A stretch of DNA of 64,000 bases, taken from positions 554,040 through 618,039 of the forward strand of contig CP046180.1 in assembly GCA_014075295.1 (NCBI GenBank). Reading direction: 5' to 3'. Shown here piece by piece: positions 1 to 49,543 of this stretch. Each line of letters starts with the position of its first letter. The first letter of the stretch is position 1. A program made the translations under genes and the position numbers. The notes under the pieces were generated by a model. That model was not told where the DNA came from, did not search any database, and was given only the letters and a program-made list of their open reading frames with translations. This DNA comes from Candidatus Mycalebacterium zealandia. Its GTDB lineage: Bacteria > Desulfobacterota_D > UBA1144 > Nemesobacterales > Mycalebacteriaceae.

Positions 1-2
1 CG

Positions 3-224
3 TATTCATTCGGAGAGATTCTTGTTCTGTCTCTTTACGAGGAATACACGCGGCGCGGAAATGATTTTGTTTCGGGTTATATGGATCTTCTGTCTTCAGG
101 CGGAAACGACAGTCCCGAAGCGCTGATTCGCAAAACCGGAGTTGACATAAACACGCCGGGTTTCTGGCGCAAAGGGGTGGGGTTTCTTGAAGAATTGCTT
201 GAAGAAGCCCTTTCCCTCGCCTGA
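3..224 (+). CDS. 3' end of an upstream gene (partial); C-terminal tail weakly resembles M3B oligoendopeptidase F
   Basis: Open frame enters from the window edge and stops at TGA 222-224. Translation ends ...DLLSSGGNDSPEALIRKTGVDINTPGFWRKGVGFLEELLEEALSLA, resembling PepF-type C-termini. Confidence 0.3.
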   Translation, partial: YSFGEILVLSLYEEYTRRGNDFVSGYMDLLSSGGNDSPEALIRKTGVDINTPGFWRKGVGFLEELLEEALSLA

Positions 225-236
225 CGGCGCGCTGTC

Positions 237-262
237 CGCGTTGAAACAACGCGCTTCTGTGT
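237..262 (+). terminator. candidate intrinsic terminator after the upstream gene
   Basis: 7-bp stem CGCGTTG / CAACGCG with AAA loop just after the stop codon, followed by a T-rich stretch CTTCTGTGTT. Confidence 0.3.
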
Positions 263-449
263 TAGTTTAGTGCGGTCTCCCGTCGGAGGTTTTTGAAATT
301 GGGATACTTTATCGCTTCATGCGTTGTTACATGGCTGGTTCTCGGATCGTATGTTCTGATTCTGTTTTCCCGTGCCCGTCGTTTGCGCCACCGCGCCTCC
401 GAAGGCGGATTCTCAAGAAAGGACTGAAGTTTGTCCCCCGTATGCAGCG

Positions 450-863
450 ATGTTATCCCCCGGAATTAAAATTGCCGTTCTTGTATTGACGGTTTTGCTT
501 TCAACCGCCTACCTCATCTATGACGGCGTTACCGACACAATGGTCTACTATCTGACCGTTCCCGAACTCAAACGGAGCGCGGAAGAGGGCGAAAGATACA
601 GAGTTTCGGGTCCCGTTGAGAAAAGAAGCATAGTCAAAAAGCGGGACGGAGAGGTGAGTTTTTCCATAAGCGGCGGTTCAGACAGTCTTGAAGTTTCATA
701 CCGGGGCGAAGTTCCCGATACTTTCACCGAAGGTGTTGAAGCTGTTGTTGAGGGGATTTATCGTGGCTCCGAAAGTTTTGAAGCCGACCTTCTTCTGGCA
801 AAGTGTCCCACAAAATATGAATCGGCGGACGGTTTATATCCGGAGAGTGACAAATTCAGATGA
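450..863 (+). CDS. ccmE: cytochrome c-type biogenesis heme chaperone CcmE (CXXXY variant)
   Basis: ORF 372..863; ATG at 450 gives an N-terminal TM helix (IKIAVLVLTVLLSTAYLIY) and an OB-fold body. C-terminal LLAKCPTKYE aligns with the canonical VLAKHDENY heme-binding motif, with Cys replacing His. Stop overlaps the ccmF start. Confidence 0.75.
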   Translation: MLSPGIKIAVLVLTVLLSTAYLIYDGVTDTMVYYLTVPELKRSAEEGERYRVSGPVEKRSIVKKRDGEVSFSISGGSDSLEVSYRGEVPDTFTEGVEAVVEGIYRGSESFEADLLLAKCPTKYESADGLYPESDKFR

Positions 864-2758
864 ACCTTCCCGAGCTGGGCTCGTCCGCGGTCATTTTCTG
901 TTTTCTGCTTTCCGTTTACTGCGCCGTCTGTTCATTCGCCGGAGGCGCTTTGCGCGCCCGCGCTCTGGTAAAAAGCGCGGAAAACGGCGTGGTCGCCGGT
1001 TTTGTTCTGCTTTGCGCGGCGGTCGCGCTTCTGCTCACCGAACTTGTTTCGCTTAACTTTGAACTGAAATACGTGGCTATGAACACGAGTTCAGACCTGC
1101 CCGTTATTTATCGCTTTACCTCTTTGTGGGCGGGGCAGGCGGGGTCGTTGATGCTTTGGTGTCTTGTGCTTGGGGCGTATGCCGCCGTGTTTGTTCTGCG
1201 TTCAGGCGCGCCCGAGCCGCTCAAGACCAATGTTACGGGAGTTATTTCGTGCGTGTCCGCGTTTTTTCTTTTTCTAATTGCGTTTGTTGAAAATCCGTTT
1301 GAAACGCTTCCATTTTCTCCGCAAGAGGGCAGGGGGCTCAACCCCATTCTCCAAAATCCCTATATGGCGATCCATCCGGTTGCGCTGTATATCGGGTATG
1401 TGGGCATAACCGTTCCATACGCTTTGGGCATGGGCGCATTGCTTTGCGGCAGAATGGATGACGCGTGGGTCAACCTGTCGCGCAAGTGGACACTTTTTTC
1501 ATGGGGAGCGCTCAGCCTTGGTTTGTTGCTCGGAGCGCGGTGGGCTTATCTGGAACTCGGCTGGGGCGGCTACTGGGCGTGGGACCCCGTTGAAAACGCG
1601 GCGTTTATGCCTTGGCTTTCGGGAACGGCTTTTCTGCATTCCATAATGGTTCAAAAAAGAAGAAATATGTTTATGAAATGGAACATCTGGCTTCTTGCAA
1701 TCACTTTTTTCCTCTCAATTTTCGGCACTTTCATAACCCGCAGCGGGCTTGTTTCTTCCGTTCACTCGTTCGCCGTTTCAGACATAGGTCCTTTGTTCAC
1801 GGCTTTTCTGCTTTTCATAATAGTTTTTTCATCCGCGCTGTTTTTCCTGCGCAGAGACGGCTTTGAGCGCGAAAGCGGATTTGATTCTGCGCTTTCGCGT
1901 GAGAGCGCGTTTGTATTCAACAATGTGCTTTTTCTCGCGGCGGCTTTCGTGGTTTTTTTCGGAACGGTTTTCCCCATTCTCTCCGAAGCCGTAACCGGAG
2001 ACCGCATACTTGTGGGCGCTCCGTATTTCAACCGGCTTAACGTTCCCATAGGGCTTTTGCTTATAACGCTGATGGGAATAGGTCCGCTTCTGCCGTGGCG
2101 TAAAACCCCTCTGCGCGCTTTTCTGCGTGCGTTTGCAGTTCCGCTCATTTGCACGGCGGCAACTCTTGCGGCTCTTCTGCTTTACGGAATGAGCGAAATC
2201 ACAGCGCTCGCCGCGTTTTCACTCTGCGTTTTTTCGGCGGCATCCGCCGTGCGCGGCATATACAAAGGCGCTAAAACAGCCGGGGCGGTCGGCGGCTACA
2301 TCGTGCACATAGGGGTCGCGCTCATAGTCGCGGGCATTACGGCGTCTTCGGTGTTTGCTACAAAAAGCGAGGCTCTTCTCGCTCCCGGACAGAGTTTCTC
2401 GGTCGGCGGCTACGAGTTGAAATACAACTCAATCAATCGCGGTTCCACTCCCGCCAAAAAGGTTGTTTCCACGCACATTGAGGTTCTAAAAAACGGCGCA
2501 CCGGCGGGTTTTCTGGTTGCTGAAAAAAACCTGTATCTATACGAGGGCAACAGGGAAATTAACCGCGAAACCGAAGTGGGTTTAATCTCAACATGGAAAG
2601 ACGACTTGTATGTCGTTCTCGTGGAAGCGCACGCGGACGATTCTGTTTTGATGGTCGCGGTTTTGAACCCGATGGTGTCATGGATTTGGGCGGGCGGTGT
2701 TGTCGCTTTGTTTGGCGCGGCGTTGTCATTTTTGCGCGCGCGGCGGGGGAGGGCTTGA
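860..2758 (+). CDS. ccmF: cytochrome c-type biogenesis protein CcmF (heme lyase, System I)
   Basis: 632-aa polytopic membrane protein with the WWD-domain signature WGGYWAWDPVENAAFMPWL. ATGA overlap with ccmE. Confidence 0.9.
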   Translation: MNLPELGSSAVIFCFLLSVYCAVCSFAGGALRARALVKSAENGVVAGFVLLCAAVALLLTELVSLNFELKYVAMNTSSDLPVIYRFTSLWAGQAGSLMLWCLVLGAYAAVFVLRSGAPEPLKTNVTGVISCVSAFFLFLIAFVENPFETLPFSPQEGRGLNPILQNPYMAIHPVALYIGYVGITVPYALGMGALLCGRMDDAWVNLSRKWTLFSWGALSLGLLLGARWAYLELGWGGYWAWDPVENAAFMPWLSGTAFLHSIMVQKRRNMFMKWNIWLLAITFFLSIFGTFITRSGLVSSVHSFAVSDIGPLFTAFLLFIIVFSSALFFLRRDGFERESGFDSALSRESAFVFNNVLFLAAAFVVFFGTVFPILSEAVTGDRILVGAPYFNRLNVPIGLLLITLMGIGPLLPWRKTPLRAFLRAFAVPLICTAATLAALLLYGMSEITALAAFSLCVFSAASAVRGIYKGAKTAGAVGGYIVHIGVALIVAGITASSVFATKSEALLAPGQSFSVGGYELKYNSINRGSTPAKKVVSTHIEVLKNGAPAGFLVAEKNLYLYEGNREINRETEVGLISTWKDDLYVVLVEAHADDSVLMVAVLNPMVSWIWAGGVVALFGAALSFLRARRGRA

Positions 2759-3982
2759 ATGAGGTTTGTCATTCTTGCCGTGTTTTTTGCCGCGCCATTT
2801 CTTTTTCCCGGCGACTGCGCGGCAAACGAGGGCGAGGCGCTTTTTGTTGAGCGCGACTGTGTTCGTTGTCACACAATCGGGCGCGGGCGGTTCGCCGGTC
2901 CCGACCTTAAAGGCGTTTTTGACAGATATTCAAAAGATGAAGTTGTTCTCTGGATAACAGATTCTTCCGCCGTTTACGAAGCGCGCGGCGGCGCTCCTGT
3001 GAATGAGGGCTATCCGCCAATGCCGCCGACCAACGTGAGCGAGCGCGAAGCGGAAAAAATCGCGGACTATCTGTTTTCTCTGCACGATGTTGCTTCTGAT
3101 GCGCCTGATGGCGGCGCGCTTTTCGGGAAAGTTGTGAACAAAACCACCGGAAAACCGGCGGCGGATGTAAAGGTTTTACTCTCCTCATTCATCGCCGAGA
3201 GACTGATTTCAGAACGCTCCGAAACCAGTGGCGCGCAAGGCGTTTTTCGTTTTGAAGGGCTTTCGTGGAGCGCGTCTCACAAAATCTCAATCCAAAAAGA
3301 CGGTGTTTTATACGAAACGGACAAAATGGTTTTCGCTCCGCGCCAAAGTGAGATTAAAACCACTTTGCCGATATACGAAACCATAACGGACGACCGCGCG
3401 ATAGGGCTTGAACTCGCGCACATGATAGTTGAGCCATTTGAGGGCGGAATCCGGGTTGCCGAATTTGTTGAGTTCGCGAACAGGGGTAAAACCGCCGTTG
3501 TCGCGGACAATGACGACAAAAACTCCGCCACTCTGCGTTTCGGCGTTCCCGAAGGCACTGAAAATCTGAATTTTATTCACGGCGCGGATTCTTCAAGTGT
3601 TTCGGCGCGAACCGGCGCTTTTGTTCTGCCCGTTCTTCCGGGTCTGAAAAAGATTGTGTTTTCTTACTTAGTGCCGTTTCAAAACAGCGGAAAAACCGTG
3701 TTCACAAAAACGCTTGAATACAAAACTTCATCGTTTGTTGCGATTTCGTCTGACCTGCAAGGCGTTGAGGTTGCGGGGCTTGGAGAAGCAAAGCACGTAA
3801 GCGGCGAAGACGGCAGGGTTTTTCTCAGATGGGAATCAAAAAGAATTGCCAAGGGCGCAAAGATTAAAATCTCAGTCAAATCCCCTTCGCCTGACAAACC
3901 CGCCTGGCTTCTGCCCGTTATGGTGTTCGCGCTTGTTTTGGCGTTTGCGGTTTTATTTCGCAGAGCTCGTCAAACTAATTGA
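2759..3982 (+). CDS. membrane-anchored mono-heme c-type cytochrome with carboxypeptidase-regulatory-like beta-sandwich domain
   Basis: Signal-like N-terminus and a single CXXCH (CVRCH) near the N-terminus. Middle region GKVVNKTTGKPAADVKVLL resembles CarboxypepD_reg/Big folds. C-terminal hydrophobic anchor WLLPVMVFALVLAFAVLF. Start overlaps the ccmF stop (TGAATG). Confidence 0.55.
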   Translation: MRFVILAVFFAAPFLFPGDCAANEGEALFVERDCVRCHTIGRGRFAGPDLKGVFDRYSKDEVVLWITDSSAVYEARGGAPVNEGYPPMPPTNVSEREAEKIADYLFSLHDVASDAPDGGALFGKVVNKTTGKPAADVKVLLSSFIAERLISERSETSGAQGVFRFEGLSWSASHKISIQKDGVLYETDKMVFAPRQSEIKTTLPIYETITDDRAIGLELAHMIVEPFEGGIRVAEFVEFANRGKTAVVADNDDKNSATLRFGVPEGTENLNFIHGADSSSVSARTGAFVLPVLPGLKKIVFSYLVPFQNSGKTVFTKTLEYKTSSFVAISSDLQGVEVAGLGEAKHVSGEDGRVFLRWESKRIAKGAKIKISVKSPSPDKPAWLLPVMVFALVLAFAVLFRRARQTN

Positions 3983-4137: not shown

Positions 4138-4734
4138 TTGCTGGACCCGCCTTTTAATTCCAATCGCAACTATTCCGCTCCAATCGGCAGTGAAGCCGCC
4201 GGAGCGGCTTTCAAAGACACTTGGACTTTTTCAGAAGTGGATAACGTCTGGCACGGAGAGATTGCTGAAAAAGAACCGGCAATTTATGAGGCAATTTCCG
4301 CGAGTGGAATTACACACGGTAAGGGAATGAAGTCATATCTGATTATGATGGCGGTTCGCCTGATTGAAATGAAGCGGGTTTTGAAACCAACCGGAAGCAT
4401 TTATTTGCATTGCGACCCGACAGCGAGCCATTATTTAAAAATGTTGATGGATGCGGTTTTTGGGAAAGAGAATTTTAAAAATGAGATTGTTTGGTGCTAC
4501 GCGAACGCGGGAAGATCAAAAAAGAAGTTTGCTCAAAAGCACGATGTAATTCTCTTTTATTCGAAATCCGAAAAATACGCTTGGACTGATTACAGAATTC
4601 CCGTTTCGGAAGCATATTTGGAAAGCCACTACAGGCAAAAAGATGGCAAGGGGCGAAGGTGTCGCATAAGAGTTGACGCCGGAAAAAAGCGCATTTATTA
4701 CCCGGAAGACGGAATGATTTGCAATGATTGGTAG
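4138..4734 (+). pseudogene. truncated, frame-disrupted beta-class DNA methyltransferase (N6A/N4C type), N-terminal half only
   Basis: Begins directly with motif IV LDPPFNSNRNY, then KRVLKPTGSIYLHCD and ILFYSKSEK typical of beta-class MTases, but ends at 198 aa before any SAM-binding FxGxG motif I. After the in-frame TAG, the same frame continues as ...ERTGYPKSG (HPTQKP-like motif), then shifts frame. Confidence 0.55.
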
Positions 4735-4863
4735 GAACTTCCTTACTTGAATTCTCAATCAAAAGAACGCACCGGCTACCCGAAAAGCGGTTGATTTGGT
4801 AACCTCCCGAATGAGACGGAAAACTACGCTTTTGAAAGGTTTGACCCCATTCATCGAGAGGAC

Positions 4864-5136
4864 GTGCCGACAAGAAAGTCGGGCGCGGAAAATTACAGAG
4901 ACCCCGAAAAGAAGAAGTTTTTATACGGACAGCAAGAGGGCAAATGCAACGGTTGCCGTGTTTTGTTTCCCTATCGCAATATGACGGTTGACCACGAAAC
5001 TCCGCAAAGCAAAGGCGGAGGCGACAACATTGAAAATCTGCAACTTCTCTGCGGGGCTTGTAATTCAATGAAAGGCGCGGGAACGCAAGAAGAGTTAATC
5101 GTCAGACTCAAAGAAGCGGGCGTTAATTACCGCTGA
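4864..5136 (+). CDS. small HNH endonuclease
   Basis: 90 aa with a GTG start. Contains CNGCRV...VDHETPQSKGGGDNIENLQLLCGACNSMKG, a canonical HNH ββα-metal motif with Cys pairs. The frame is open upstream to 4795 without an ATG, so it may be the remnant of a larger MTase-HNH gene. Confidence 0.6.
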   Translation: MPTRKSGAENYRDPEKKKFLYGQQEGKCNGCRVLFPYRNMTVDHETPQSKGGGDNIENLQLLCGACNSMKGAGTQEELIVRLKEAGVNYR

Positions 5137-6717
5137 TTACTTCTCAAAAAACACGCTCATTGCGTCGGCCAGACCTTCGGCGGTGTGCTTTTTCGCGACA
5201 ACGGACGGTTTGAAGCCCGCATCTTCAACAGTTTTTGCCGTGATGGGACCGATACAGCCGATTGAGGATTTACTCAAAATCTCTTTCGCGTTTTTGAAAA
5301 TGGCGAGGAAGTTTGTCGCCGATGACGAACTTGTAAAAACAACCATGTCCACCGCGCCGTCAAACATTTCGCGCCCGACCGCTTTAATTTCGGCGGGTTC
5401 ATGTTTCGGAATTCGCGTGCGGTAGCATGGCGCGGTTTGAACCTTCGCGCCCATTTTCTTCAAGCCCGCCGGAAGCGCGTCTCTGGCTTTTTCAGCTCTT
5501 GGAATAAAAAAGGTTTTTCCGCGAATTCCGCGCTTTTTCATCTCCGCGAGCACTCCCTCGGCGGTGTATTTTTTCGGAATTATGTCCGCTTCTATTCCAA
5601 AGCCGTTCAGGGCTTCGGCGGTTTTGCTTCCTATTGCCACGGTTTGAATTCCCGCGAGCGCCCTTGAATCAAGCGCCTTCTTTTTCATTCTCTCAAAAAA
5701 CCTTTCAACACCGTTTACGCTTGTGAACGCGAGAAAATCGCACGAGGAAAGATTTTTAATAATCCGGTCGGCATTGTTCCATGAACGCGGCGGAACAATC
5801 TCAATGCAGGGAAACGAGATGACTTCCGCGCCGCGCTGTTGCAAAAGTTTTACAAAATCCGCCGATTGACCCGCCGGACGGGTAACGACAATTTTTTTGC
5901 CGAAAAGCGGCTTTGTTTCAAACCAGTTCAATTTTTTCCTCATTCCAATCGCACCTCCCGCTATCACGACCGCCGGAGCGAAATCAGCCCCTTCGCCGCG
6001 GATTTTCGCGCTTATGTTTTCAAGCGTGCCGACAACGGTTTTCTGTTTTCCCGTTGTTCCGCGCGAGGTAACCATAACGGGGGTTTTTCGCGGTTTTTTA
6101 TTTTGTATGAGTTTTTTTGTTATCTCCTCAATGTTGTTCAGAGACATAAGGAAAACAACGGTTTCCATTCCGGCGAGATTTTTCCAGTTCAGGCGCGATT
6201 TTTTGTCGGGCTTCTCATGTCCCGTTACGACAGCGAAAGACGAATTGAAGTCTCTGTGGGTGAGCGGCACGCCTGAGTAAGCCGGAACGGAATAAACTGA
6301 ACTCACACCCGGAATAACCTCAATCACAATGCCGGCGGACAACAGTGCTTCGGTTTCTTCGCCGCCTCTTCCGAACACAAAAGGGTCTCCGCCTTTGAGG
6401 CGCACAACCGTTTTGCCACATTGCGCCTTGTTTATCATCAAGCGGTTAATTTCTTTTTGTTCAAGAGTTTTCATCCCCTTTTTTTTGCCCGCGAAAATCA
6501 TCTCCGCGCCGTGCGGGGCGAATTCCAGCAAAGAATTGTTTGCCAGCGCGTCGTAAATGACCACATCGGCGCACGCAAGAGTTTCCATTCCCTTGACGGT
6601 TATGAGACCCGGGTCTCCGGGTCCCGCGCCGACCAGATAAACCGCCGGTCTGTTTTTTATCGCTTTTCCTTTTTTCATCAGAACTATTAGCAATAACAAC
6701 GGGTGCGATGTTGTCAA
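5137..6717 (-). CDS. cobA: bifunctional uroporphyrinogen-III C-methyltransferase / uroporphyrinogen-III synthase (CobA-HemD fusion)
   Basis: N-terminal VYLVGAGPGDPGLITVKG...GGDPFVFGRGGEE (SUMT signature) and a C-terminal 250-aa HemD-like domain. 526 aa. Confidence 0.85.
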   Translation of the reverse strand: MTTSHPLLLLIVLMKKGKAIKNRPAVYLVGAGPGDPGLITVKGMETLACADVVIYDALANNSLLEFAPHGAEMIFAGKKKGMKTLEQKEINRLMINKAQCGKTVVRLKGGDPFVFGRGGEETEALLSAGIVIEVIPGVSSVYSVPAYSGVPLTHRDFNSSFAVVTGHEKPDKKSRLNWKNLAGMETVVFLMSLNNIEEITKKLIQNKKPRKTPVMVTSRGTTGKQKTVVGTLENISAKIRGEGADFAPAVVIAGGAIGMRKKLNWFETKPLFGKKIVVTRPAGQSADFVKLLQQRGAEVISFPCIEIVPPRSWNNADRIIKNLSSCDFLAFTSVNGVERFFERMKKKALDSRALAGIQTVAIGSKTAEALNGFGIEADIIPKKYTAEGVLAEMKKRGIRGKTFFIPRAEKARDALPAGLKKMGAKVQTAPCYRTRIPKHEPAEIKAVGREMFDGAVDMVVFTSSSSATNFLAIFKNAKEILSKSSIGCIGPITAKTVEDAGFKPSVVAKKHTAEGLADAMSVFFEK

Positions 6718-6789
6718 GATGCGCGCTTGACAACACGCGACTTTTTTTTACCATTACTCACATCCAAACAGTTATCGGAGGTTAGAGGT

Positions 6790-7362
6790 ATGAATAAAAA
6801 AACGGTTCTCTATTTTGCATCGGCGATTTTTTGCGTCGCTGTGTTTTCGCCGTCGTTTTCCCTTGCGGACGGTGATTGCTCATATTCAAAAAAAGGCGGG
6901 GAAAAGAGTTTTTGGAGCAGAATCACCGGCGGGGACAAAGAAAACGGAGAGCACGGAGAGAAAAGGCGCCGTTGCCACAAAGACAAGTACGGACACGGCA
7001 AGCGCGGCTTGGACGCGTTCTGGTGGAGAAGCGCGGACATGGCGGAGCGTTTGCGGCTTAGCGACGAGCAAATTAAGCGGTTGGACGGAATTGCCGCTTC
7101 AAGCCATGAAAAAATCTCAAACGCGTATGAAAAGGCGTTTGAAGAGAAACAGCGGTTCAGAAAAGTTATGAAAGAATCTGGCTCGTCCGCCGATGAAATC
7201 AAAGCGGCGGCGCAGAGGAAATACACGGCAATGACGGAGAAAAAACACGCACGGTTGGAGATGATACTCGCGATGCGCGAAGTTCTCACACCAGAGCAAA
7301 GAAGGGATTTTTCCGTTTTGAAACACAAAGGGCGCAAGGGATGCGGAAAGTCCGGGCGGTAG
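6790..7362 (+). CDS. periplasmic Spy/CpxP/ZraP-family protein with LTXXQ motifs
   Basis: ATG at 6790 with RBS GGAGG. Signal peptide MNKKTVLYFASAIFCVAVFSPSFSLA. Two LTXXQ-like motifs (LSDEQIKRL, LTPEQRRDF). His/Lys/Cys-rich N-terminal stretch GEHGEKRRRCHKDKYGHGKRG. Confidence 0.6.
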   Translation: MNKKTVLYFASAIFCVAVFSPSFSLADGDCSYSKKGGEKSFWSRITGGDKENGEHGEKRRRCHKDKYGHGKRGLDAFWWRSADMAERLRLSDEQIKRLDGIAASSHEKISNAYEKAFEEKQRFRKVMKESGSSADEIKAAAQRKYTAMTEKKHARLEMILAMREVLTPEQRRDFSVLKHKGRKGCGKSGR

Positions 7363-26142: not shown

Positions 26143-26250
26143 TGGTTGCCGTTTTGGACGGAATGGATAGTGAATGTTATGAGGTTGAGTGGGGGTTGTA
26201 AAGTGAAGGACACAAGCCGGACTTCTTACTCGGAAAAAAAGGCGTGCCGA

Positions 26251-26487
26251 GTTGTGAATTGAGGGCAGGTTTCAGTCAGTTACAATCTGCGCGCGCTATC
26301 TTCAATCTGTCTTTGAGTTGTGAATTAAGGGCAGGTTTCAGTCAGTTACAATACGGACAAATTATTGTAAGACAGGGCAGGGGGTGTTGTGAATTAAGGG
26401 CAGGTTTCAGTCAGTTACAATTTACAGTTCGCACTTCCTACCAAGGCGCGAGTTGTGAATTAAGGGCAGGTTTCAGTCAGTTACAAT
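26251..26487 (+). CRISPR. CRISPR array, 4 repeats / 3 spacers, 36-bp repeat GTTGTGAATTAAGGGCAGGTTTCAGTCAGTTACAAT
   Basis: Repeats at 26251-26286 (variant with G at position 11), 26317-26352, 26386-26421 and 26452-26487. Spacers are 30, 33 and 30 nt. Sits directly 3' of cas2. The ORF-track entry 26244..26489 is a translation artefact of the array. Confidence 0.9.
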
Positions 26488-26537
26488 AGCTCGTCCTCAA
26501 CTGTCCTGCTGGCAAGGGGTTATGGCTTTTCCACAAA

Positions 26538-26867
26538 TCAAAAAAGAGTGATTTGCTGAGGAGCCCTTTCCAGTTTCTTTCGTTTTTTCCCATAAAAAAT
26601 TTGCATTCGTCCAAATTGCTTGTCTGTAATTGTAATAATCCGCACTTCGCCTTCGGGAGGCAAAGATTCTCTTACTCGCCCTGAATGGACATAGGCGTTT
26701 TCTTCGCTTGCGCAGTGTCTGGCATATACGGAGAACTGCATCATGATAAATCCGTCTTGCATAATATGCTTTCTGAACTTCGTATAATCTTTCCGTGCTC
26801 TCTTTGTGTCTGTGGGAAGGTCAAACATAACTATTATCCACACGGTTCTGTATCCTCCGAAAGCCAT
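26538..26867 (-). CDS. cas2: CRISPR-associated endoribonuclease Cas2 (type II)
   Basis: 109 aa with N-terminal IVMFDLPTDTKRARKDYTKFRKHIMQDGFIMMQFSVYARH, typical of type II Cas2. Confidence 0.9.
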   Translation of the reverse strand: MAFGGYRTVWIIVMFDLPTDTKRARKDYTKFRKHIMQDGFIMMQFSVYARHCASEENAYVHSGRVRESLPPEGEVRIITITDKQFGRMQIFYGKKRKKLERAPQQITLF

Positions 26868-26870
26868 TTT

Positions 26871-27779
26871 TTACATTTCAATCCTCATTTGTTTGTTCTC
26901 AATCAGTTCCGGTATTTTCAAAGAGTCAATTCCTTCTGAAAACGCTTTCTTCAGGCTCGCGGCCATGTATTGATTTGCCACCATCATTGGCAATTTCTTT
27001 TCTTCAAGTAAAACATCTTCAGACAGAAGGGAAAGCAATGATAACTTTATCTTTTTATCAATTTCTGTTTTTCCATTTTCGTTCAATTCATAAACTCGTC
27101 TGTCAACAAGAGGTCTCAACGGTTCCATAATGTCATCGGCGAGACACATAGGGTTGTATTGATTGTGATGATGAATTCCGAGCGCAGGATGAAGCCCTGT
27201 TCCGCACAAAGCGCGAGCAACAGACGCCCTGATTAGGCTGTATCCGTAGTTTAGAAGGGAATTCACTCCACTTTCTTTGTAATCTCTGCCGAATTCTTTC
27301 CCGAACAGTATTGACCAGTATATTTTTGCGGCTTGCGCTTCAATATTTTTCGGATCACCACTTTGAACTCTCTTCTTGAGACTTGGAAGTGTTCCCGGAT
27401 CTTTCTTGAAAAAGAGCAACGTTTGAATCTGCGCCTCGGTTTTGGCTATTATAATTTTCTGCCAGAGCCGTTTTTTCAGCGGTTTTTTAACTCCCGTCTG
27501 TATGTTGAGAACCTTGCTGTGCATTGAGTTTCCTGAGAGAGGAAGCAAGGCGGAAACGGGTAGATGCCTTTGGTCGCAAAACACAATTATGCAGTTATTT
27601 TTCTGACATTCCGCTATAAGACTTTGAGAGATTGAGATTGCAGGGTTGGCAAGTATGAGAATACCCATGTCTTCCACGGGAATACTGCTGTCATTTTCAC
27701 TCTCTTTTCTGATAATCATCTGACAGTCTTTCAGATGAAGGTATGCGGGGTTGCTGATTTCAATGATTCTTTTGATCAT
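26871..27779 (-). CDS. cas1: CRISPR-associated integrase Cas1 (type II)
   Basis: 302 aa, type II Cas1-like throughout. Its start overlaps the cas9 stop by 4 nt. Confidence 0.9.
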   Translation of the reverse strand: MIKRIIEISNPAYLHLKDCQMIIRKESENDSSIPVEDMGILILANPAISISQSLIAECQKNNCIIVFCDQRHLPVSALLPLSGNSMHSKVLNIQTGVKKPLKKRLWQKIIIAKTEAQIQTLLFFKKDPGTLPSLKKRVQSGDPKNIEAQAAKIYWSILFGKEFGRDYKESGVNSLLNYGYSLIRASVARALCGTGLHPALGIHHHNQYNPMCLADDIMEPLRPLVDRRVYELNENGKTEIDKKIKLSLLSLLSEDVLLEEKKLPMMVANQYMAASLKKAFSEGIDSLKIPELIENKQMRIEM

Positions 27780-30700
27780 TGTGTTTTAGTGTTGTTTTTA
27801 GCGAGACCAAGAGCATTTATGGATTCTTGTTTTACTTTGTATTCCGCCATTAGTGTTGAAGGAGCCATTGCCAATTCAAGTTTTTTCTTTTCATCGGAGG
27901 ATAGTTTTTTAAAATCTTGATCTGAGGTTCCGTCTGTGTGTTTTCGTAGTATCAATTTTATACACTGATTTTTCTGTCCTCTGTCTATTTTCCGCACTCT
28001 ATAGAATATTTTCTCACCGTTTTTCTGAACACTTACGGTGTCATTTATACATAGACTCATAACAAATTCCCGGTTTTCCCCGTGTTCAGTTTTTACAATC
28101 GGTTCTTTCCTAATTCTTGTTCTCTCTGCGGCTTTCATAGTTGTTACAACAATACTCTCATATTTTCCGGTTTCTCCATTCTTGATAATTTCCACATGAT
28201 GATTGTTGCCATATTGCAAAACCTTTGAGATTTTTCCTGCTTTATTCTTCTTCGTATAGTAAAAACTCTCATTAAAGGTTTTAGACATCCAAACTTTAAC
28301 GCGTCTGACAGCATCTCCCGTTTCCGGGTGTTTCAACGGTTGTTCTTTCAAAGCTTTTTTTGCCTTGCTCAAATCATTTCCTTGTTCCAAAACATATCTT
28401 TCAAATGCTTCTCTAACAGTTGGAGATACTATCTCTTTGTTCTTCAACACAGCGTCTGATATATCAGTCAAGTTTTTACGAACAACAATTCCTTTTTTGC
28501 CGTTTTCTTCTCTTACTCCATAAATCGTGTCTTCGTGAAATGCTCCCGTTATTTTTCTGTTTGTTGCATGAGAGACAATCATTCCATCTACAGCTTCCTG
28601 CAGTCTGTTTCTGAGATTGTCAAGAATTCTAGGGGGTTCCAATCCATGTTCGGGGTCTATGGAATCACCGCTAGCCTCTGATGCCACTTTGACTATTTTT
28701 TGATAAAGACTGCGGTTCGTAAGCGCAATCACGGTTGCGTCAATCGCGTGGTGTCTGTGGTCGGCGCGGTTTTTCTCTCCCGTTTCGCTGAGAATTTTAT
28801 TTAATCCCCATTGGTGACGGAGCCAACTTGTTATTCCGCCTTTTGTAAAAGTTACATCGCAACCGAGAGTTCTCATATACTTGCCGGTTTCTTTTGCTAT
28901 GTAGCGTGCGTCAGTCAGCTGGCTGTTAACAAAATCTTCAATTCCTTCCATTTTTTTTGCCAGAATTCTTCCGCATTTTGCTTCGGGATAGTTGTTGCGT
29001 TTTGCCATGCTCTCAATGGTTTTCCATTGTTCTGTTTCGCCAAATGCTTCCCACGGTGTTTTGTTGTGCTTTTCCCTGTTCTCTTTTGCAAAACATATGA
29101 CCTTGTTCATATAAGAGTTATCAAGACTTCTGCTATACGGAAGAATGTGATCTATTTCAACATCGGAAGACCAGAGGTCCGTCAAACTGATAGACTTTCC
29201 GCTGTATGAACATTTACACTCACTTTCTTTCCAGAGTCTGTATTTCAGTTTGTCCTGATGGCTTATATATTTCTTTAACCGCAAGTCGGGTTCCCTATCT
29301 CTGATGCTATTGTATTTTTCTTCCGCTTCCTCATTGGCTTTCCTATTCTTTTTATGTATTTGTTCCGCTCTTTTGTATTTTTCCGTGTTCATCTCTAAAT
29401 CACGAGACATTTCTATGCGTATAGCGGTTGGTTTCCCGTACTCTTTGATAATTGCATTCACAACACGCCGGACTTCATAAAGAGCTTTTGTAACAATGGG
29501 ATTCGGTATAAAAGGCAGTTCGCCAAGAGTTTCTTTGTCTCCGGTCTTCGGTTTTGTAATGTCTTTATAGCCTGCTACTTGAACCGCTCCCGTTTCATCT
29601 TCCTTGTCGCTTTCCCTGCTATAAACCCTGCCTTCTTTAAGGTGTGGCAGGATTTTATTTATTGCTTTCAGTGAAAGATTTCCATGTCCCTCTTCCAATT
29701 CCAGAACAGCAAGTTTGACAGCTTTTTCCAAATCAAATTTCCAGTGATCTTGCAGGCGTTTTTTCAGTTTTATTTTGGACTCATAGGAAATTAAGTCTTC
29801 AACAAGTTGTTTTTGTTTGCTGTCGTCGAGTGAGTCGTCCCAATCATCTCCGATAATCTCTCTTATTCCGCAAGCTGTTGTGTTTCCCTTAATACCCTTT
29901 CTGCTTTTTCCTTCAACTTTTTCCAGATTGAATTTTGTTCGTTTGTTCAGGCTGAACAGGGTTTTTATTTTTGCCCATGTCAGATTTTTGTTTTTCTCAA
30001 GCGTTTCGGCAATTAGTTGTTTCTGCTCAGGCGAGGGTTTTACATCTCTTTCTCCCGTTTCGGTGTCATCCCAACTTAAATTGTTAATGTCCTGCCAGTA
30101 ACGAAATTGCTGAAATTCAAGACGTTCCATTTTCACTCTTTTCTTTTTCGGTTCAAGAGAACAATTACCCACGGTGTTTTTATTCCAAATTATAGAGCGT
30201 TGGTTAAAGATGATTTTCTCAATCGCGTTTTTGACATTTTCCGTATAAATCTTTGGATTAAGTGCGAATTGCTTACGGAAGATTTGTTCAAACTCTTCCT
30301 GATACATTTTTCTGTCGGTTCTGCGGTCATGATATTCTCCTCTGTTGCGTTTGCGGTTCAGGGTTGAGAGGTGTTCGCCAAGGGTTCTTTTTCCGGCTTC
30401 TTTTATATCATCTCGGAGTTCTTGAATGTCTTTTTTGAATTTGTTTTCATCGTTGTCAGTTTTTGCAGATTTATCTTCAATTTCTAAAATTTCCCGCACC
30501 TCCGGGTCATCACGCAAATTTCCAAATCCCGTTTTGCGGTTGCTTAAAAATCCTCGCCGTGTTCCCAAGTGAAGTATCGCGCGTCCAAACTTATGTGGAG
30601 TCAATTCTTCGTCCAACGCTTTTGCCCTTAAATCATAAGGGTTGCCCAGTTTGTTAAGTTCCGTTTCAGGATTGGGTTCATCTTTCAGAGAATTCGGCAG

Positions 30701-30964
30701 AAATTCTTTGCTTATCAGATAGTTTCTCAGACGCATTTTACGTCTATGTCGCCTTTCAATTACACGCCTTAAAAGCCGTTTCTCTCGACGGTTTTGATTT
30801 TTTGGGGTGGGTGTTTTGTCTTCAACGGAACGGATAAAAATCCTGCTTCCACAACTTACGAGTCCTTTCGGTTTGCCGTTCTTTTCCTCTACAACACTCC
30901 AGCCAATGGAGTTTGTTCCCATATCAAGACCAATTGTGTATTCAGACAGTTTTGCTTTTTTCAT
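27776..30964 (-). CDS. cas9: Cas9 endonuclease, type II-C
   Basis: 1062 aa. RuvC-I motif YTIGLDMGTNSIGWSVV (Asp14). HNH motif VEIDHILPYSRSLDNSYMNKVICFAKENREKHNKTP (His about residue 606). Arg-rich bridge helix KNQNRREKRLLRRVIERRHRRKMRLR. No csn2 or cas4 in the locus, hence II-C. Confidence 0.9.
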   Translation of the reverse strand: MKKAKLSEYTIGLDMGTNSIGWSVVEEKNGKPKGLVSCGSRIFIRSVEDKTPTPKNQNRREKRLLRRVIERRHRRKMRLRNYLISKEFLPNSLKDEPNPETELNKLGNPYDLRAKALDEELTPHKFGRAILHLGTRRGFLSNRKTGFGNLRDDPEVREILEIEDKSAKTDNDENKFKKDIQELRDDIKEAGKRTLGEHLSTLNRKRNRGEYHDRRTDRKMYQEEFEQIFRKQFALNPKIYTENVKNAIEKIIFNQRSIIWNKNTVGNCSLEPKKKRVKMERLEFQQFRYWQDINNLSWDDTETGERDVKPSPEQKQLIAETLEKNKNLTWAKIKTLFSLNKRTKFNLEKVEGKSRKGIKGNTTACGIREIIGDDWDDSLDDSKQKQLVEDLISYESKIKLKKRLQDHWKFDLEKAVKLAVLELEEGHGNLSLKAINKILPHLKEGRVYSRESDKEDETGAVQVAGYKDITKPKTGDKETLGELPFIPNPIVTKALYEVRRVVNAIIKEYGKPTAIRIEMSRDLEMNTEKYKRAEQIHKKNRKANEEAEEKYNSIRDREPDLRLKKYISHQDKLKYRLWKESECKCSYSGKSISLTDLWSSDVEIDHILPYSRSLDNSYMNKVICFAKENREKHNKTPWEAFGETEQWKTIESMAKRNNYPEAKCGRILAKKMEGIEDFVNSQLTDARYIAKETGKYMRTLGCDVTFTKGGITSWLRHQWGLNKILSETGEKNRADHRHHAIDATVIALTNRSLYQKIVKVASEASGDSIDPEHGLEPPRILDNLRNRLQEAVDGMIVSHATNRKITGAFHEDTIYGVREENGKKGIVVRKNLTDISDAVLKNKEIVSPTVREAFERYVLEQGNDLSKAKKALKEQPLKHPETGDAVRRVKVWMSKTFNESFYYTKKNKAGKISKVLQYGNNHHVEIIKNGETGKYESIVVTTMKAAERTRIRKEPIVKTEHGENREFVMSLCINDTVSVQKNGEKIFYRVRKIDRGQKNQCIKLILRKHTDGTSDQDFKKLSSDEKKKLELAMAPSTLMAEYKVKQESINALGLAKNNTKTQ

Positions 30965-45290: not shown

Positions 45291-45312
45291 AAATTTAGAC
45301 ATGCCTAAATTT
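45291..45312 (+). promoter_or_regulatory. candidate DtxR/MntR-type operator palindrome upstream of the regulator and metal ABC operon
   Basis: Inverted repeat AAATTTAG-ACATGC-CTAAATTT immediately 5' of the RBS GGAGGAG. Preceded by a duplicated CATGCCT(T/A)A element and a TATTATAGT -10-like box. Confidence 0.4.
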
Positions 45313-45323
45313 TGGAGGAGTTG

Positions 45324-46025
45324 ATGCTCAACCAGACGACAGAGGACTATCTGAAAACCATTTACGAATTGGCGGAGTGTTCGGACAAGGTTACGACTAA
45401 AGCCATAGCGGAAAAACTGAAAGTTTCATCTCCGTCCGTTACTGAGATGACAAGAAAACTCGCCGCGAAAAAACTGCTTGTTTACAAGCCGTATCACGGC
45501 GTCAAACTTACCAAGGCGGGCGAGAAGGTGGCACTTGAAATGATAAGGCATCACCGGCTCATAGAGCTTTATCTTCAGGAGGCGCTTGGAATTCCGTGGG
45601 ACAGGGTTCACGCCGAGGCGGAGAAGTGGGAACATTTCATCTCCGAAGATGTAGAGGACAGAATGGATGCCAAACTCGGATTTCCCAAGGTTGACCCGCA
45701 TGGGGCGCAGATTCCAACCCGTGACGGTGTTCTTCCGATACGCAGAAAGTGCGAAACTCTGGACACTCTGCAAGCCGGAGACAAAGGGGTTGTTGCGGAA
45801 GTGAGTGACCATGATTCCGAACTGCTGGGATATCTTGGAAACATAGATATCTTCCCCCGCAGCAGCATTGAGGTTAGGAGTATAGAGCCGTTTGACGGAC
45901 CGATGACTATCAGCGTCAACGGGCACAAACGCATTATCGGCAAAAACGTGGCAGTTTACATTTCCATTACCGACATAGAGAAAAAACAAGCGGAGCCGAA
46001 GAGGGCCTCGGGAGGTAAACAATGA
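45324..46025 (+). CDS. mntR: DtxR/MntR-family metal-dependent transcriptional repressor with C-terminal FeoA/SH3-like domain
   Basis: TEDYLKTIYEL...SPSVTEMTRKLAAKKLL...IRHHRLIELYL (DtxR HTH and dimerisation region). ATG at 45324 after the RBS. Confidence 0.8.
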   Translation: MLNQTTEDYLKTIYELAECSDKVTTKAIAEKLKVSSPSVTEMTRKLAAKKLLVYKPYHGVKLTKAGEKVALEMIRHHRLIELYLQEALGIPWDRVHAEAEKWEHFISEDVEDRMDAKLGFPKVDPHGAQIPTRDGVLPIRRKCETLDTLQAGDKGVVAEVSDHDSELLGYLGNIDIFPRSSIEVRSIEPFDGPMTISVNGHKRIIGKNVAVYISITDIEKKQAEPKRASGGKQ

Positions 46026-47005
46026 GACTTGCGGTTTTATTTTCGGCGTTTGCGCTGTTTTTCACGCCCGTTCCCTCTGTTGCCCATCACCATTTTGCGG
46101 ACGAAACACGGCACGGCGTTATAAATGTTGTTTCCACAACAGGCATTATCAATGACATTGTCAAAAATGTGGGAGGCAAAAAGGTTTCCACGACCGCGCT
46201 TATGGGGCCCGGCATTGACCCCCACCTTTACAGGGCAACCGCCGGAGACGTCAAAACGCTCGCCCGCGCCGATGTTGTTTTTCATCACGGGCTTCACCTT
46301 GAGGGGAAACTTTCCGATTTGCTGAACGGAATGCGGGCAAGGGGCATCAACACGGTTGCTGTTACCGATGAAATTCCCAAATCCATGCTGCTTTCCGCAG
46401 GTGTGCCGGGCAATTACGACCCGCATGTGTGGTTTGACCCGAATCTGTGGAGTATGTCGGTGCGCGCAGTTGCTCGTACGCTTTCGGAAATAGATCCCGC
46501 GAACTCCGCTTTTTACTCGGCCAACGCGAGTGACTACATCGCTGCTCTTTCAGAGGTTGACGGTTACGCCAGACGGAAGTTTTCAGCCATTCCGGAAAAT
46601 CTTAGGTTTATAGTCACTTCGCATGACGCGTTTGCGTATTTCGGCAGGGCTTACGGCTTTGAGGTAACTGCACTTCAAGGTGTCAGCACGGCTTCGGAAG
46701 CGGCAATTTCAGACATCCACAGAGTGGTCGACGTGATTGTGAACAACCGGCTTCCCGCGATTTTTACCGAATCGTCAGTTTCCCCGCGCTATATCAAGGC
46801 GGTCAAAGAGGCGGTGGAATATTCAGGGGTTTTAATCAAAATCGGTGGGCAACTCTACTCGGATGCGCTTGGTGGCAAGGATTCTGAGCAGGACACCTTT
46901 TACGGAATGTTCAAACACAACGTTGATGTGATTTACGGCTCTCTTTCAACAAACACCGAGCGAGAGCTTGCGACCGCGCCAAAAATTCAGGACCCGGGCC
47001 TTTGA
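46022..47005 (+). CDS. metal (Mn/Zn/Fe) ABC transporter substrate-binding protein, TroA/ZnuA/MntC cluster A-I family
   Basis: Signal peptide and TroA-like fold sequence with conserved His/Asp metal ligands. Confidence 0.8.
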   Translation: MRLAVLFSAFALFFTPVPSVAHHHFADETRHGVINVVSTTGIINDIVKNVGGKKVSTTALMGPGIDPHLYRATAGDVKTLARADVVFHHGLHLEGKLSDLLNGMRARGINTVAVTDEIPKSMLLSAGVPGNYDPHVWFDPNLWSMSVRAVARTLSEIDPANSAFYSANASDYIAALSEVDGYARRKFSAIPENLRFIVTSHDAFAYFGRAYGFEVTALQGVSTASEAAISDIHRVVDVIVNNRLPAIFTESSVSPRYIKAVKEAVEYSGVLIKIGGQLYSDALGGKDSEQDTFYGMFKHNVDVIYGSLSTNTERELATAPKIQDPGL

Positions 47006-47027
47006 CACTTGACGGATTTTTTGAGTT

Positions 47028-47741
47028 ATGGAAAATCCACTTGAAGTCAAAGGGCTGACTGTCGCGTATTCGGGATTGGTCGCATTGTGGAATATTTCAT
47101 TGACTGTTCCGCGAGGGTCTTTAACTGCCGTAGTGGGTCCTAACGGAGCGGGCAAAAGCACCCTTATAAAAGCCGTTCAAAACCTTGTGCCCAGAGCCGC
47201 GGGTGAAGTCCGGATTTTCGGAAAACTCTATGACGAGTTGAGAAAATCGGTCGCATACGTGCCGCAGCGTGGCAACGTTGACTGGAACTTTCCCGCCAGT
47301 GTTTTTGATGTGGTTCAGATGGGAACCTACGCTTCTCTGGGCTGGATGAAGAGACCCGGAGAGATAGAGAGGCGGAAAACCTTTGCCGCGCTTGAAAGAA
47401 CGGCGATGGAGGAGTTTGCCGACCGGCAGATAGGTGAGCTTTCAGGCGGACAACAGCAAAGGGTTTTTGTGGCGCGCGCCCTTGTTCAAGATGCGGATTT
47501 GTATCTTATGGACGAGCCGTTTCAGGGCGTTGACAGCGTTACGGAAATAACAATCGCGAATATTATGCGCGAGATGAGTCGGAACGGAAAAACAATGATA
47601 GTGGTTCACCATGACCTTCAAACCGTACCGGATTATTTTGACCGCGCGGCGTTGATAAACAGGGAAATTGTCGCCTGCGGAGCGGTTTCGGAGGTGTTTA
47701 ACGGAGAAAACATCGGCGTGACTTACGGTGCCGGAGGTTAG
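47028..47741 (+). CDS. metal ABC transporter ATP-binding protein
   Basis: Walker A GPNGAGKST, signature LSGGQQQR, Walker B LYLMDEP. Confidence 0.85.
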   Translation: MENPLEVKGLTVAYSGLVALWNISLTVPRGSLTAVVGPNGAGKSTLIKAVQNLVPRAAGEVRIFGKLYDELRKSVAYVPQRGNVDWNFPASVFDVVQMGTYASLGWMKRPGEIERRKTFAALERTAMEEFADRQIGELSGGQQQRVFVARALVQDADLYLMDEPFQGVDSVTEITIANIMREMSRNGKTMIVVHHDLQTVPDYFDRAALINREIVACGAVSEVFNGENIGVTYGAGG

Positions 47742-47748
47742 GGCGCGC

Positions 47749-48648
47749 ATGTGGATTTTTTCCGAACTGTTTTCGAACTACACGGTTGCCGTGGTTGTGT
47801 GTGGCGCGATTTTTCTCGGATTGACCGCAGGCGCCTGCGGAACTGTCGTGTTTGTGAGGAAGGAAACACTTCTTGCGGACGCGGTTTCGCACGGCTGCCT
47901 TCCGGGCATTGCGCTGGGATTTATGGTGGCGCAGGGCAAGTCGCCCTCAATGTTGCTTGTCGGCGCGCTTCTCACGGCGTTTGTGACCGTGGGTTTTGTG
48001 CGCCTCGCGCGTTCGGTTTCCGCTGTCAGGTTTGACAGCGCTCTCGCGATGGGTGTTTCAATCTCATTTGGGGTAGGCATTGTTCTTCTTACAGCCATTC
48101 AGTCGTCCGGCGCTTCGGGGCAGGCGGGGCTTGACAGGTTTTTGTTCGGTCAGGCAAGCGCGATGTCGCTTGATGACGTAAAAACCATTTTTATCATGGG
48201 TGCGGTCTGCGCGCTTTCTCTCGCGGTTTTCTGGAAGCATATCAAAATCGTGTGTTTTGACCGTGAATACGCCGAGTCTTCAGGCTTCAGCGTGCGCGCT
48301 GTCGGGTTTTTTCTGAACGCCTTTCTTGTTGCCGCAACCGTAATCGGGATTGAAACCGTGGGCGTTGTGTTGATGTGCTCAATGATGGTGGCTCCGGCAA
48401 TCGCGGCAAGGCATTTGACGGACACAATGGGCAAGATGACCGTGCTCGCGGCGCTTATCGGTGCCGTGGGCGGAGTTCTCGGGGTGATTGGAAGTTGGAA
48501 AATCGACAACCTTCCGACCGGTCCCGCGATTGTCGTGTGCGTTACCGTGGCGGCTCTCGCGGCCATTTTGTTCTCTCCGAAGAATGGCATCTTGGCGCGC
48601 CGTGCGAGGTTTGAATCAGCCGGGGTTGAAAATGAGCCCCGAAGTTGA
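47749..48648 (+). CDS. metal ABC transporter permease (TroC/ZnuB-like)
   Basis: Multi-TM ABC-3 family permease. ATG at 47749 just after the ATPase stop. Confidence 0.75.
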   Translation: MWIFSELFSNYTVAVVVCGAIFLGLTAGACGTVVFVRKETLLADAVSHGCLPGIALGFMVAQGKSPSMLLVGALLTAFVTVGFVRLARSVSAVRFDSALAMGVSISFGVGIVLLTAIQSSGASGQAGLDRFLFGQASAMSLDDVKTIFIMGAVCALSLAVFWKHIKIVCFDREYAESSGFSVRAVGFFLNAFLVAATVIGIETVGVVLMCSMMVAPAIAARHLTDTMGKMTVLAALIGAVGGVLGVIGSWKIDNLPTGPAIVVCVTVAALAAILFSPKNGILARRARFESAGVENEPRS

Positions 48649-49543
48649 AATACAGATAATAGCCGCGCTTGTGTCGGTCGCGTGCGCGACCATTGGGATT
48701 TTTCTGGTTCTCAGAAAGAAGGCGATGATTACAGACTCCGTGAGTCACTCAATCCTGCCGGGAATTGCGGCGGGTTTTATTTTGACCGGAAGCGTTACTT
48801 CTCCGTTGCTTGTTTTTGGAGCGTTCGCGGCGGCCATTGCAAGTGTTTTTTCGTCTGAAGCGCTCGCTCGCTTGCGCTTGATGTCAAACGACTCGGCAAT
48901 CGCTTTTGTTTACCCATTTCTTTTCAGCATCGGAGTCATACTTGTTTCGGGATACGCAGGTAACGCCCATCTGGATGTTGATTCGGTTCTGCTCGGAGAA
49001 TTGGCGCTCGCACCACTTGACAGAATCATTATTGGCGGCACGGACATAGGACCGTTCGCGCTTTATTCATCGGGTGCGATTGCAGTGCTTTGCGCCGTTT
49101 TTGTCGCCATTTTCTACAAGGAGTTGAAACTGTCAGCTTTTGATGAGTCTGCGGCGAAAACTGCGGGTTTTTCAAAATTTGTATTTTCCGCCGCTTTCTC
49201 GGCGGTGGTCTGCGCCACCTGCATTGTTGCTTTTGGCGCGGTAGGCTCGGTTCTGCTCATAGCTCTTGTGGCGACTCCGCCGTGCTGTGCTTTGCTTCTT
49301 ACGGACCGGCTCGGAAGGGCAATTGTTTTGAGCGCCGCGATTGCGGCGGCGTGCTCGGTCACGGGGTTTCACGCGGCTGTGAAGTGGAATACAAATATCG
49401 CCGGAGCCGCAACCACCGTTTTGGGAGTTGTATTTATTTTGATTCTGATTTTTTCGCCTCGAAAAGGGATTGTTTCAAGCTTGGTTGAAAACCGCAGACG
49501 CGAAAAACAGATTCAAGCAGCTCTGCGGAAATTGTCCTCTTAG
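48632..49543 (+). CDS. metal ABC transporter permease (second subunit, TroD-like)
   Basis: Paralogous ABC-3 permease starting MSPEVEIQII. Overlaps the previous gene's end. Confidence 0.75.
   Translation: MSPEVEIQIIAALVSVACATIGIFLVLRKKAMITDSVSHSILPGIAAGFILTGSVTSPLLVFGAFAAAIASVFSSEALARLRLMSNDSAIAFVYPFLFSIGVILVSGYAGNAHLDVDSVLLGELALAPLDRIIIGGTDIGPFALYSSGAIAVLCAVFVAIFYKELKLSAFDESAAKTAGFSKFVFSAAFSAVVCATCIVAFGAVGSVLLIALVATPPCCALLLTDRLGRAIVLSAAIAAACSVTGFHAAVKWNTNIAGAATTVLGVVFILILIFSPRKGIVSSLVENRRREKQIQAALRKLSS

Follow-up and report, generated by a model that had tools for sequence, protein, structure and literature searches.

Genes of the locus

The window analysed here is the whole stretch of 64,000 nucleotides from Candidatus Mycalebacterium zealandia, which is also represented by contig JAAHTH010000004.1 of assembly GCA_011087705.1. 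According to NCBI taxonomy, this organism belongs to the class Candidatus Dadabacteria of the phylum Thermodesulfobacteriota, which also includes Desulfovibrio. A literature search found no publications on Mycalebacterium. At the start of the window, ccmE is followed by ccmF and by a gene whose periplasmic, membrane-anchored product contains a cytochrome c domain, all on the forward strand, while a cobA-hemD fusion gene is encoded further downstream on the reverse strand (Table 1).

Table 1. Features of the ccmE-ccmF region of the window, and homologs of the gene downstream of ccmF in related loci
Feature	Locus	Coordinates	Strand	Basis
ccmE, Cys-type (System I*) heme chaperone, 137 aa	Window	450..863	+	Pfam PF03100, Foldseek, dN/dS
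N-terminal membrane-anchor helix of CcmE, aa 4-30	Window	459..539	+	AlphaFold2 model, hydrophobic stretch
OB-fold beta-barrel domain of CcmE, aa 31-118	Window	540..803	+	AlphaFold2 strands, TM-scores
CPTKY heme-binding motif	Window	804..818	+	phmmer alignment to PDB chains; homolog alignment
ccmF, cytochrome c synthetase/heme lyase, 632 aa	Window	860..2758	+	Pfam Cytochrom_C_asm and CcmF_C
Periplasmic protein with membrane anchor, 407 aa; start codon directly abuts the ccmF stop codon	Window	2759..3982	+	Pfam, AlphaFold2
cobA-hemD fusion (uroporphyrinogen-III methyltransferase and synthase), outside the Ccm machinery	Window	5137..6678	-	Pfam
Beta-sandwich family homolog	L005	12997..14433
Beta-sandwich family homolog	L006	13011..14486
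Beta-sandwich family homolog	L024	9123..10415
Beta-sandwich family homolog	L040	9649..10683

The ccmE gene starts with the ATG at 450 and ends with a TGA codon (861-863) that overlaps the ATG of ccmF at 860. Its product matches the Pfam family CcmE (PF03100) over residues 31-125 with 83 bits (E=2e-23; cut-off 24.6). Together with the phmmer alignment to CcmE chains in the PDB and with the top Foldseek matches of its structural model, all of which are CcmE, this confirms the CcmE heme chaperone proposed in the initial annotation. Eight CcmE equivalog models of NCBIfam also match the protein, each below its strict cut-off, which indicates a divergent CcmE subfamily. A 100% identical entry at NCBI is named cytochrome c maturation protein CcmE of Candidatus Mycalebacterium zealandia, and an identical copy of the protein is encoded on 14 public contigs. 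A GTG at 372 was rejected as an upstream start codon because all homologs start at the position of ATG 450. Comparison with the 89%-identical congeneric locus L088 gives a dN/dS ratio of 0.16 for ccmE, and the gene is thus under purifying selection. A scan for promoters and terminators between positions 150 and 4200 yielded nothing that exceeded the expectation from shuffled sequence.

The AlphaFold2 model of CcmE, which is based on 26 homologs and has a mean pLDDT of 81.9, consists of a helix formed by residues 4-30, a six-stranded barrel extending to residue 117, and a disordered tail. The modelled strands comprise residues 33-36, 49-56, 68-75, 78-85, 97-104, and 109-117. The anchor contains the hydrophobic stretch IKIAVLVLTVLLSTAYLIY with Lys7 on its N-terminal side and is aligned in all homologs. 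In a Foldseek search against the PDB, the four top matches are 8ce8_E (E. coli, from the CcmABCDE complex), 1lm0 and 1j6q (both Shewanella), and 1sr3 (E. coli), and 2kct from D. vulgaris is found at rank 9. The TM-scores of the model, normalised to the length of the CcmE NMR structures, range from 0.67 to 0.75. In the model, Cys119 opens a predicted flexible segment directly after the barrel, like His130 in E. coli.

A cysteine at the heme-binding position

The segment LLAKCPTKYE comprises residues 115-124 of CcmE (nt 792-821), with Cys119 encoded by TGT (804-806) and Tyr123 by TAT (816-818). In the phmmer alignments to PDB chains, LLAKCPTKY pairs without gaps and in every column with VLAKHDENY of CcmE from E. 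coli (1sr3, 8ce8) and Shewanella (1j6q). Accordingly, Cys119 corresponds to His130 of E. coli CcmE and Tyr123 to the iron ligand Tyr134. The segment also pairs with LMTKCP of the Cys-type CcmE of D. vulgaris (2kct), which places the Cys of the Desulfovibrio protein and Cys119 at the same heme-binding position. Sequence and structure alignments thus agree with the earlier suggestion that a Cys replaces the heme-binding His in this protein, and they leave no room for a Cys located outside this position. Cys119 is the only Cys of the protein. As the protein contains not a single His, there is no alternative heme-binding His.

The sequence LLAKCPTKY is found without any exchange in all of the 120 closest homologs listed, and CPTKY is invariant in the 26 aligned homologs. 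The identical protein on 14 contigs and the conservation of LLAKCPTKY among the 120 listed homologs exclude a frame or sequencing artefact, and a hidden His is ruled out by the absence of this residue from the protein.

The Cys-for-His variant is the one described for the System I of Desulfovibrio, as had been proposed initially; this is supported by the alignment with 2kct and its Foldseek match as well as by published work on this type of CcmE (PMC3601427, PMC3884852, PMC9084895). Gene 450..863 therefore encodes the known cysteine form of CcmE, which is the normal form in the Dadabacteria lineage, and the observation is correct but ordinary. The additional proposal of an unusual heme-CcmE chemistry is overstated, because CcmE proteins with a covalent Cys-heme bond, as in M. 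acetivorans and D. desulfuricans, already are an experimentally characterised class and because the Cys type forms the majority (56 of 62) of the related loci described below.

CcmF and the organisation of the ccm genes in Dadabacteria

CcmF aligns over its full length with the structure of CcmF from T. thermophilus (6zmq; 323 bits). Its WWD motif GWGGYWAWDPVENA (nt 1559-1600) is intact, and so are the four residues His172, His260, His302, and His483 in the conserved contexts AIHPVA, AFLHS, SVHSFA, and IVHIGV, respectively. The dN/dS ratio over the first 243 codons is 0.08 in comparison with L088, showing that ccmF is under purifying selection as well.

In free-living Dadabacteria, the ccm genes form a contiguous cluster consisting of ccmA, ccmB, ccmC, a gene for a CcmD_alt-type lipoprotein, ccmE, ccmF, a gene for a protein with a transmembrane (TM) segment, a coil, and a zinc ribbon (166-185 aa), and a gene for a cytochrome c/beta-sandwich membrane protein (478-491 aa). 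The CcmE motif encoded in these clusters is the same as in the window. The ccmABC(D) regions used for comparison are located at 7073..9971 in L005 and at 5291..9963 in L006. Usually, CcmD is a small, separate protein. In both of these loci, the gene in the interval between ccmC and ccmE (L006 9295..9963; L005 9357..9971) encodes a lipoprotein-like periplasmic domain of about 200 aa that is fused to a C-terminal CcmD_alt-type TM segment, and the CcmD_alt segment of this interval gene matches TIGR04391 with 28.2 bits (cut-off 24). The protein with the TM segment and the coil resembles CcmI: TIGR03142, the N-terminal domain of CcmI, is listed for seven out of ten such proteins from several phyla, with E-values from 9e-8 to 0.1 and one match above the cut-off (32.5 bits).

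The symbiont lineage, represented by the window and by the 65%-identical relative L004 on a 1.4-Mb contig, has only ccmE, ccmF, and the cytochrome gene at this site. Upstream of ccmE, a gene for an M3 peptidase (in the region 1..450 of the window) takes the place of ccmABC(D). Genes for CcmABCD are found neither within the 10 kb upstream of ccmE nor elsewhere in the 64-kb window. Tblastn searches of the 64 kb with Dadabacteria queries for CcmA, CcmB, CcmC, the CcmD fusion, the CcmI-like protein, and the TM198 protein returned an unrelated Mn/Zn ABC ATPase at 47028 as the sole match. When species-representative genomes were searched with a profile of Dadabacteria CcmC, this genome was not among the best 80 loci listed, a result that says nothing about an absence of the gene. 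Of the CcmI-like gene, a 42-aa remnant is preserved in L004 (12381..12509) and nothing is left in the window, where no homolog of this helper was found; it is an optional feature of System I*. The cytochrome c/beta-sandwich protein of free-living Dadabacteria ends in a TM segment and a cytoplasmic coil that is homologous to its CcmI-N-terminal-like neighbour, and the version in the window lacks this coil. The loss of the CcmI-like gene and of the cytoplasmic coil in the symbiont lineage thus points to a pared-down system.

A search of the 64-kb window for CcmH-type ORFs of at least 80 aa with an LRCxxC motif was negative. With a CcmE devoid of His and no CcmH-like ORF in the window, the locus does not belong to the canonical System I of the E. 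coli/Rhodobacter type. The only thioredoxin motif in the window, a WAPWC match at 60845, was considered as a candidate for CcmG and was rejected, as it is part of an ordinary cytoplasmic thioredoxin.

Distribution of Cys-type CcmE

Related ccm loci were gathered by similarity to CcmC, and the CcmE motif could be classified in 62 out of 88 loci; the following numbers therefore describe this sample and are not a census. Among the classified loci, 56 are of the Cys type and six of the His type. The most frequent Cys-type motifs are KCPTKY (24 loci) and SCPSKY (16), followed by KCPSKF and QCPSRF (five each) and by others. Hosts of Cys-type loci are Dadabacteria, Chloroflexota, Binatia, Armatimonadota, Zixibacteria, and Desulfosporosinus, whereas the His-type loci, with KHSEEY and similar motifs, belong to Rokubacteria/Methylomirabilota and Actinomycetota. 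CcmH-like ORFs with an LRCxxCQ motif are encoded in five of the His-type loci and are lacking from all 56 loci of the Cys type. Thus, the CcmC-selected sample reproduces the published pattern that Cys-type CcmE and CcmH tend toward mutual exclusion.

With these results, Dadabacteria including the sponge-symbiont lineage join the bacteria with a Cys-type CcmE, and CPTKY is the invariant form of the motif in this clade. In the symbiont lineage, ccmE and ccmF have been split from ccmABCD and the CcmI-like helper has been shed, yet both genes are under selection.

The gene downstream of ccmF

The product of the gene following ccmF combines a signal peptide and a single cytochrome c domain of class I, whose heme-binding motif is CVRCH (nt 2858-2872), with three domains of the beta-sandwich type and a TM helix at the C-terminus. 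It matches the Pfam family Cytochrom_C with 39.9 bits and, weakly, CarboxypepD_reg. Its AlphaFold2 model (pLDDT 81.6) retrieves only generic beta-sandwich and TM proteins from the PDB in Foldseek searches, such as Ost1/ribophorin I with a TM-score of about 0.3, and these matches provide no functional lead.

According to a family HMM, a homolog follows ccmF at a distance of no more than 3 kb in 22 of the 45 Cys-type loci with enough flanking sequence and in none of the five corresponding His-type loci; the same applies to nine of 11 loci in which ccmE is cut off. Among the gathered loci, the HMM detected no member of the family in the Binatia and Thermomicrobium groups. The number of cytochrome c domains varies: Dadabacteria have one, most homologs from Chloroflexia and Anaerolineae have two, and 16 of the 39 aligned members, which come from Chloroflexota, Armatimonadota, Zixibacteria, and unclassified lineages, have none. 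Across phyla, the beta-sandwich parts of the 39 aligned members share no conserved Cys, His, or Met, so that neither a redox site nor a ligand site can be proposed.

The beta-sandwich gene is thus conserved alongside ccmF in some of the System I* clusters, and no description of it was found in the literature cited here. It is conceivable, if rather doubtful, that its product is an undescribed accessory component of the CcmH-less, Cys-type maturation of cytochromes c. The protein could act as a periplasmic docking or chaperone module that replaces the periplasmic domains of CcmH and CcmI. This makes the gene a reasonable target for studies on how CcmF works without CcmH.

Tetrapyrrole synthesis and other genes in the window

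The initial annotation had also referred to a cobA-hemD fusion, and this fusion is real: a single ORF, which is 513 aa long in the public gene call, contains a TP_methylase domain (173 bits) and a HEM4 domain (220 bits). The gene is located near the ccm cluster and on the opposite strand in the relatives L004 to L007 as well. In all Dadabacteria loci examined, it is found a few genes downstream of the ccm genes in this orientation, for example at 13834..15432 in L004, 15184..16725 in L005, and 15296..16873 in L006. The linkage between genes for tetrapyrrole synthesis and for cytochrome c maturation is therefore conserved in Dadabacteria. D. vulgaris has the same fusion, with both functions assigned to DVU0734 (PMC3004389).

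From the combination of this fusion with the Cys-type CcmE, a heme metabolism similar to that of sulfate reducers had been deduced, which is plausible but putative. Of the siroheme-dependent alternative heme pathway of sulfate reducers and archaea, the window contains the cobA-hemD fusion alone. Pfam scans of the large ORFs in the 64 kb revealed none of the ahb genes characteristic of this pathway, neither ahbA/B (nirD/H-like) nor ahbC/D (nirJ-like radical SAM) genes, and the window holds no sign of sulfate reduction. Common descent within the Thermodesulfobacteriota explains both the Cys-type CcmE and the cobA-hemD fusion without implying sulfate reduction.

Several further gene groups were observed in the window. 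Between the cytochrome gene and cobA-hemD, a fragment of an N6/N4 DNA methylase (198 aa) and a 90-aa HNH endonuclease are encoded on the forward strand (4138..5136). As this pair is absent from the equivalent site in L004, it looks like the insertion of a small mobile element or restriction-modification remnant. A periplasmic protein of the LTXXQ-motif family with a basic, His/Lys-rich N-terminal stretch is encoded between cobA-hemD and uvrB (6703..7362, forward strand). A compact type II CRISPR-Cas locus extends from 26249 to 30964 and comprises, on the reverse strand, genes for Cas9 (27776..30964; 1062 aa) and Cas1 (26871..27779) and a Cas2-sized ORF (26538..26867), together with four direct repeats of 38 nt at a spacing of 66-69 nt (26249..26487). 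An operon for the uptake of Mn, Zn, or Fe (45312..49543, forward strand) encodes a metal-dependent repressor of the DtxR family with a FeoA domain, a ZnuA-type binding protein, an ABC ATPase, and two ABC-3 permeases.

Proposed function and alternative explanations

The product of ccmE is very probably a functional Cys-type CcmE that serves as a membrane-anchored, periplasm-facing heme chaperone of System I*, and it would bind heme covalently and deliver it to CcmF without CcmH. By homology to the members tested experimentally, heme would be handed to the surface of the OB-fold by CcmC together with CcmAB and CcmD, which are presumably encoded elsewhere in the genome. The thiol of Cys119 would then form a covalent bond with a heme vinyl group, presumably a thioether, and Tyr123 would ligate the iron. 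After its release, holo-CcmE would dock on the co-transcribed CcmF, which would move the heme onto CXXCH apocytochromes without the need for a CcmH partner.

A sub-question of this mechanism is whether Cys119 could be an axial thiolate only, with CcmE acting as a reversible carrier of non-covalently bound heme and no covalent thioether intermediate. The CcmE of D. vulgaris (2kct), which shares the KCP motif, binds ferric heme in vitro exclusively in a non-covalent manner via C127 (PMC3884852), and Stevens et al. pointed out that a thioether is hard to break (PMC3601427). However, the in vitro work was carried out without CcmABCD, which is required for covalent loading in System I. Moreover, when the Desulfovibrio operon was expressed in E. 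coli, holocytochrome c was formed without CcmH and CcmG, and heme was covalently attached to the Cys-type CcmE of D. desulfuricans in vivo (PMC3601427). Both the formation of heme-stained holo-CcmE and cytochrome maturation depend on C120 of the CXXXY motif in M. acetivorans; the SDS-resistant, heme-stained CcmE band disappears in the C120A variant, and C120H is not tolerated (PMC9084895). A purely non-covalent role of Cys119 is therefore improbable.

The three adjacent genes could also constitute a dedicated module for the maturation of the neighbouring cytochrome c, comparable to NrfEFG for NrfA, instead of being part of a general Ccm system. Their tight packing, with an overlap of stop and start codons followed by zero spacing, would fit such a module, as would the approximately equal scores of CcmF on the NrfE and the generic CcmF/NrfE models of NCBIfam, both of which are below the respective cut-offs. 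In the relatives, however, these three genes adjoin the sole ccmABC(D) set seen per locus, and the adjacent cytochrome has a standard CXXCH heme motif. In addition, 16 of the 39 aligned members of the downstream family, all of which are ccm-linked, lack CXXCH and cannot serve as substrates for heme attachment. This makes a dedicated module very improbable. A decaying, orphaned remnant with a functionless Cys, left behind after the loss of ccmABCD from a streamlined symbiont genome, is scarcely credible, as the missing ccmABCD in the window and in the 10 kb upstream, the loss of the CcmI-like gene, the truncation of the downstream gene relative to free-living relatives, and the position of this genome outside the best 80 loci listed in the CcmC profile scan are set against low dN/dS ratios (0.16 for ccmE, 0.08 for ccmF), the integrity of every functional motif of CcmE and CcmF, the same split layout with intact genes in the 65%-identical relative, and a CXXCH cytochrome requiring maturation that is encoded directly downstream.

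Comparison with known systems

In 2006, Allen and co-workers reportedly described this variant, in which a novel type of CcmE coincides with the lack of CcmH, for archaea and a number of bacteria. Work on the Cys-type CcmE of Desulfovibrio (System I*) is said to have been presented by Goddard in 2010 and by Aramini in 2012. The name System I* was introduced by Stevens et al. in 2011, and the carriers listed there are delta-proteobacteria, chloroflexi, and firmicutes (PMC3601427). In this work, CPSKY was the commonest Cys-type motif (25 of 36 genomes), CcmH was kept in about one third of the Cys-type bacteria, and CcmI enhanced the Desulfovibrio system without being required (PMC3601427).

As a Cys-type chaperone of System I*, the CcmE of the window resembles the proteins of D. 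desulfuricans and D. vulgaris (2kct), with which it has about 32% identity over the OB-fold, and it differs from them in its CPTKY motif in place of the commonest form CPSKY. Unlike in Desulfovibrio, the locus in the window has neither adjacent ccmABCD genes nor a CcmI-like gene, and ccmF is followed by the cytochrome c/beta-sandwich gene. With CcmE from Methanosarcina acetivorans it shares the CXXXY motif, and the system of this archaeon works without CcmH and CcmI (eLife 2022; PMC9084895). In M. acetivorans, however, CcmF is split into two genes and CcmD is missing, whereas CcmF is a single protein in the window and the bacterial relatives carry a CcmD_alt-type segment.

The best structural match is CcmE from E. 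coli (1sr3, 8ce8), which has the N-terminal anchor, the OB-fold, the flexible C-terminal tail, and the positions of the heme-binding residue and the Tyr in common with the protein of the window. In contrast to the latter, it relies on His130 within HDENY and on an N-vinyl bond, and it requires CcmH and CcmG. Neither residue can stand in for the other at this position: the H130C variant of E. coli CcmE binds heme without being able to hand it over, and Cys-type CcmE fails when its Cys is exchanged for His (PMC9084895).
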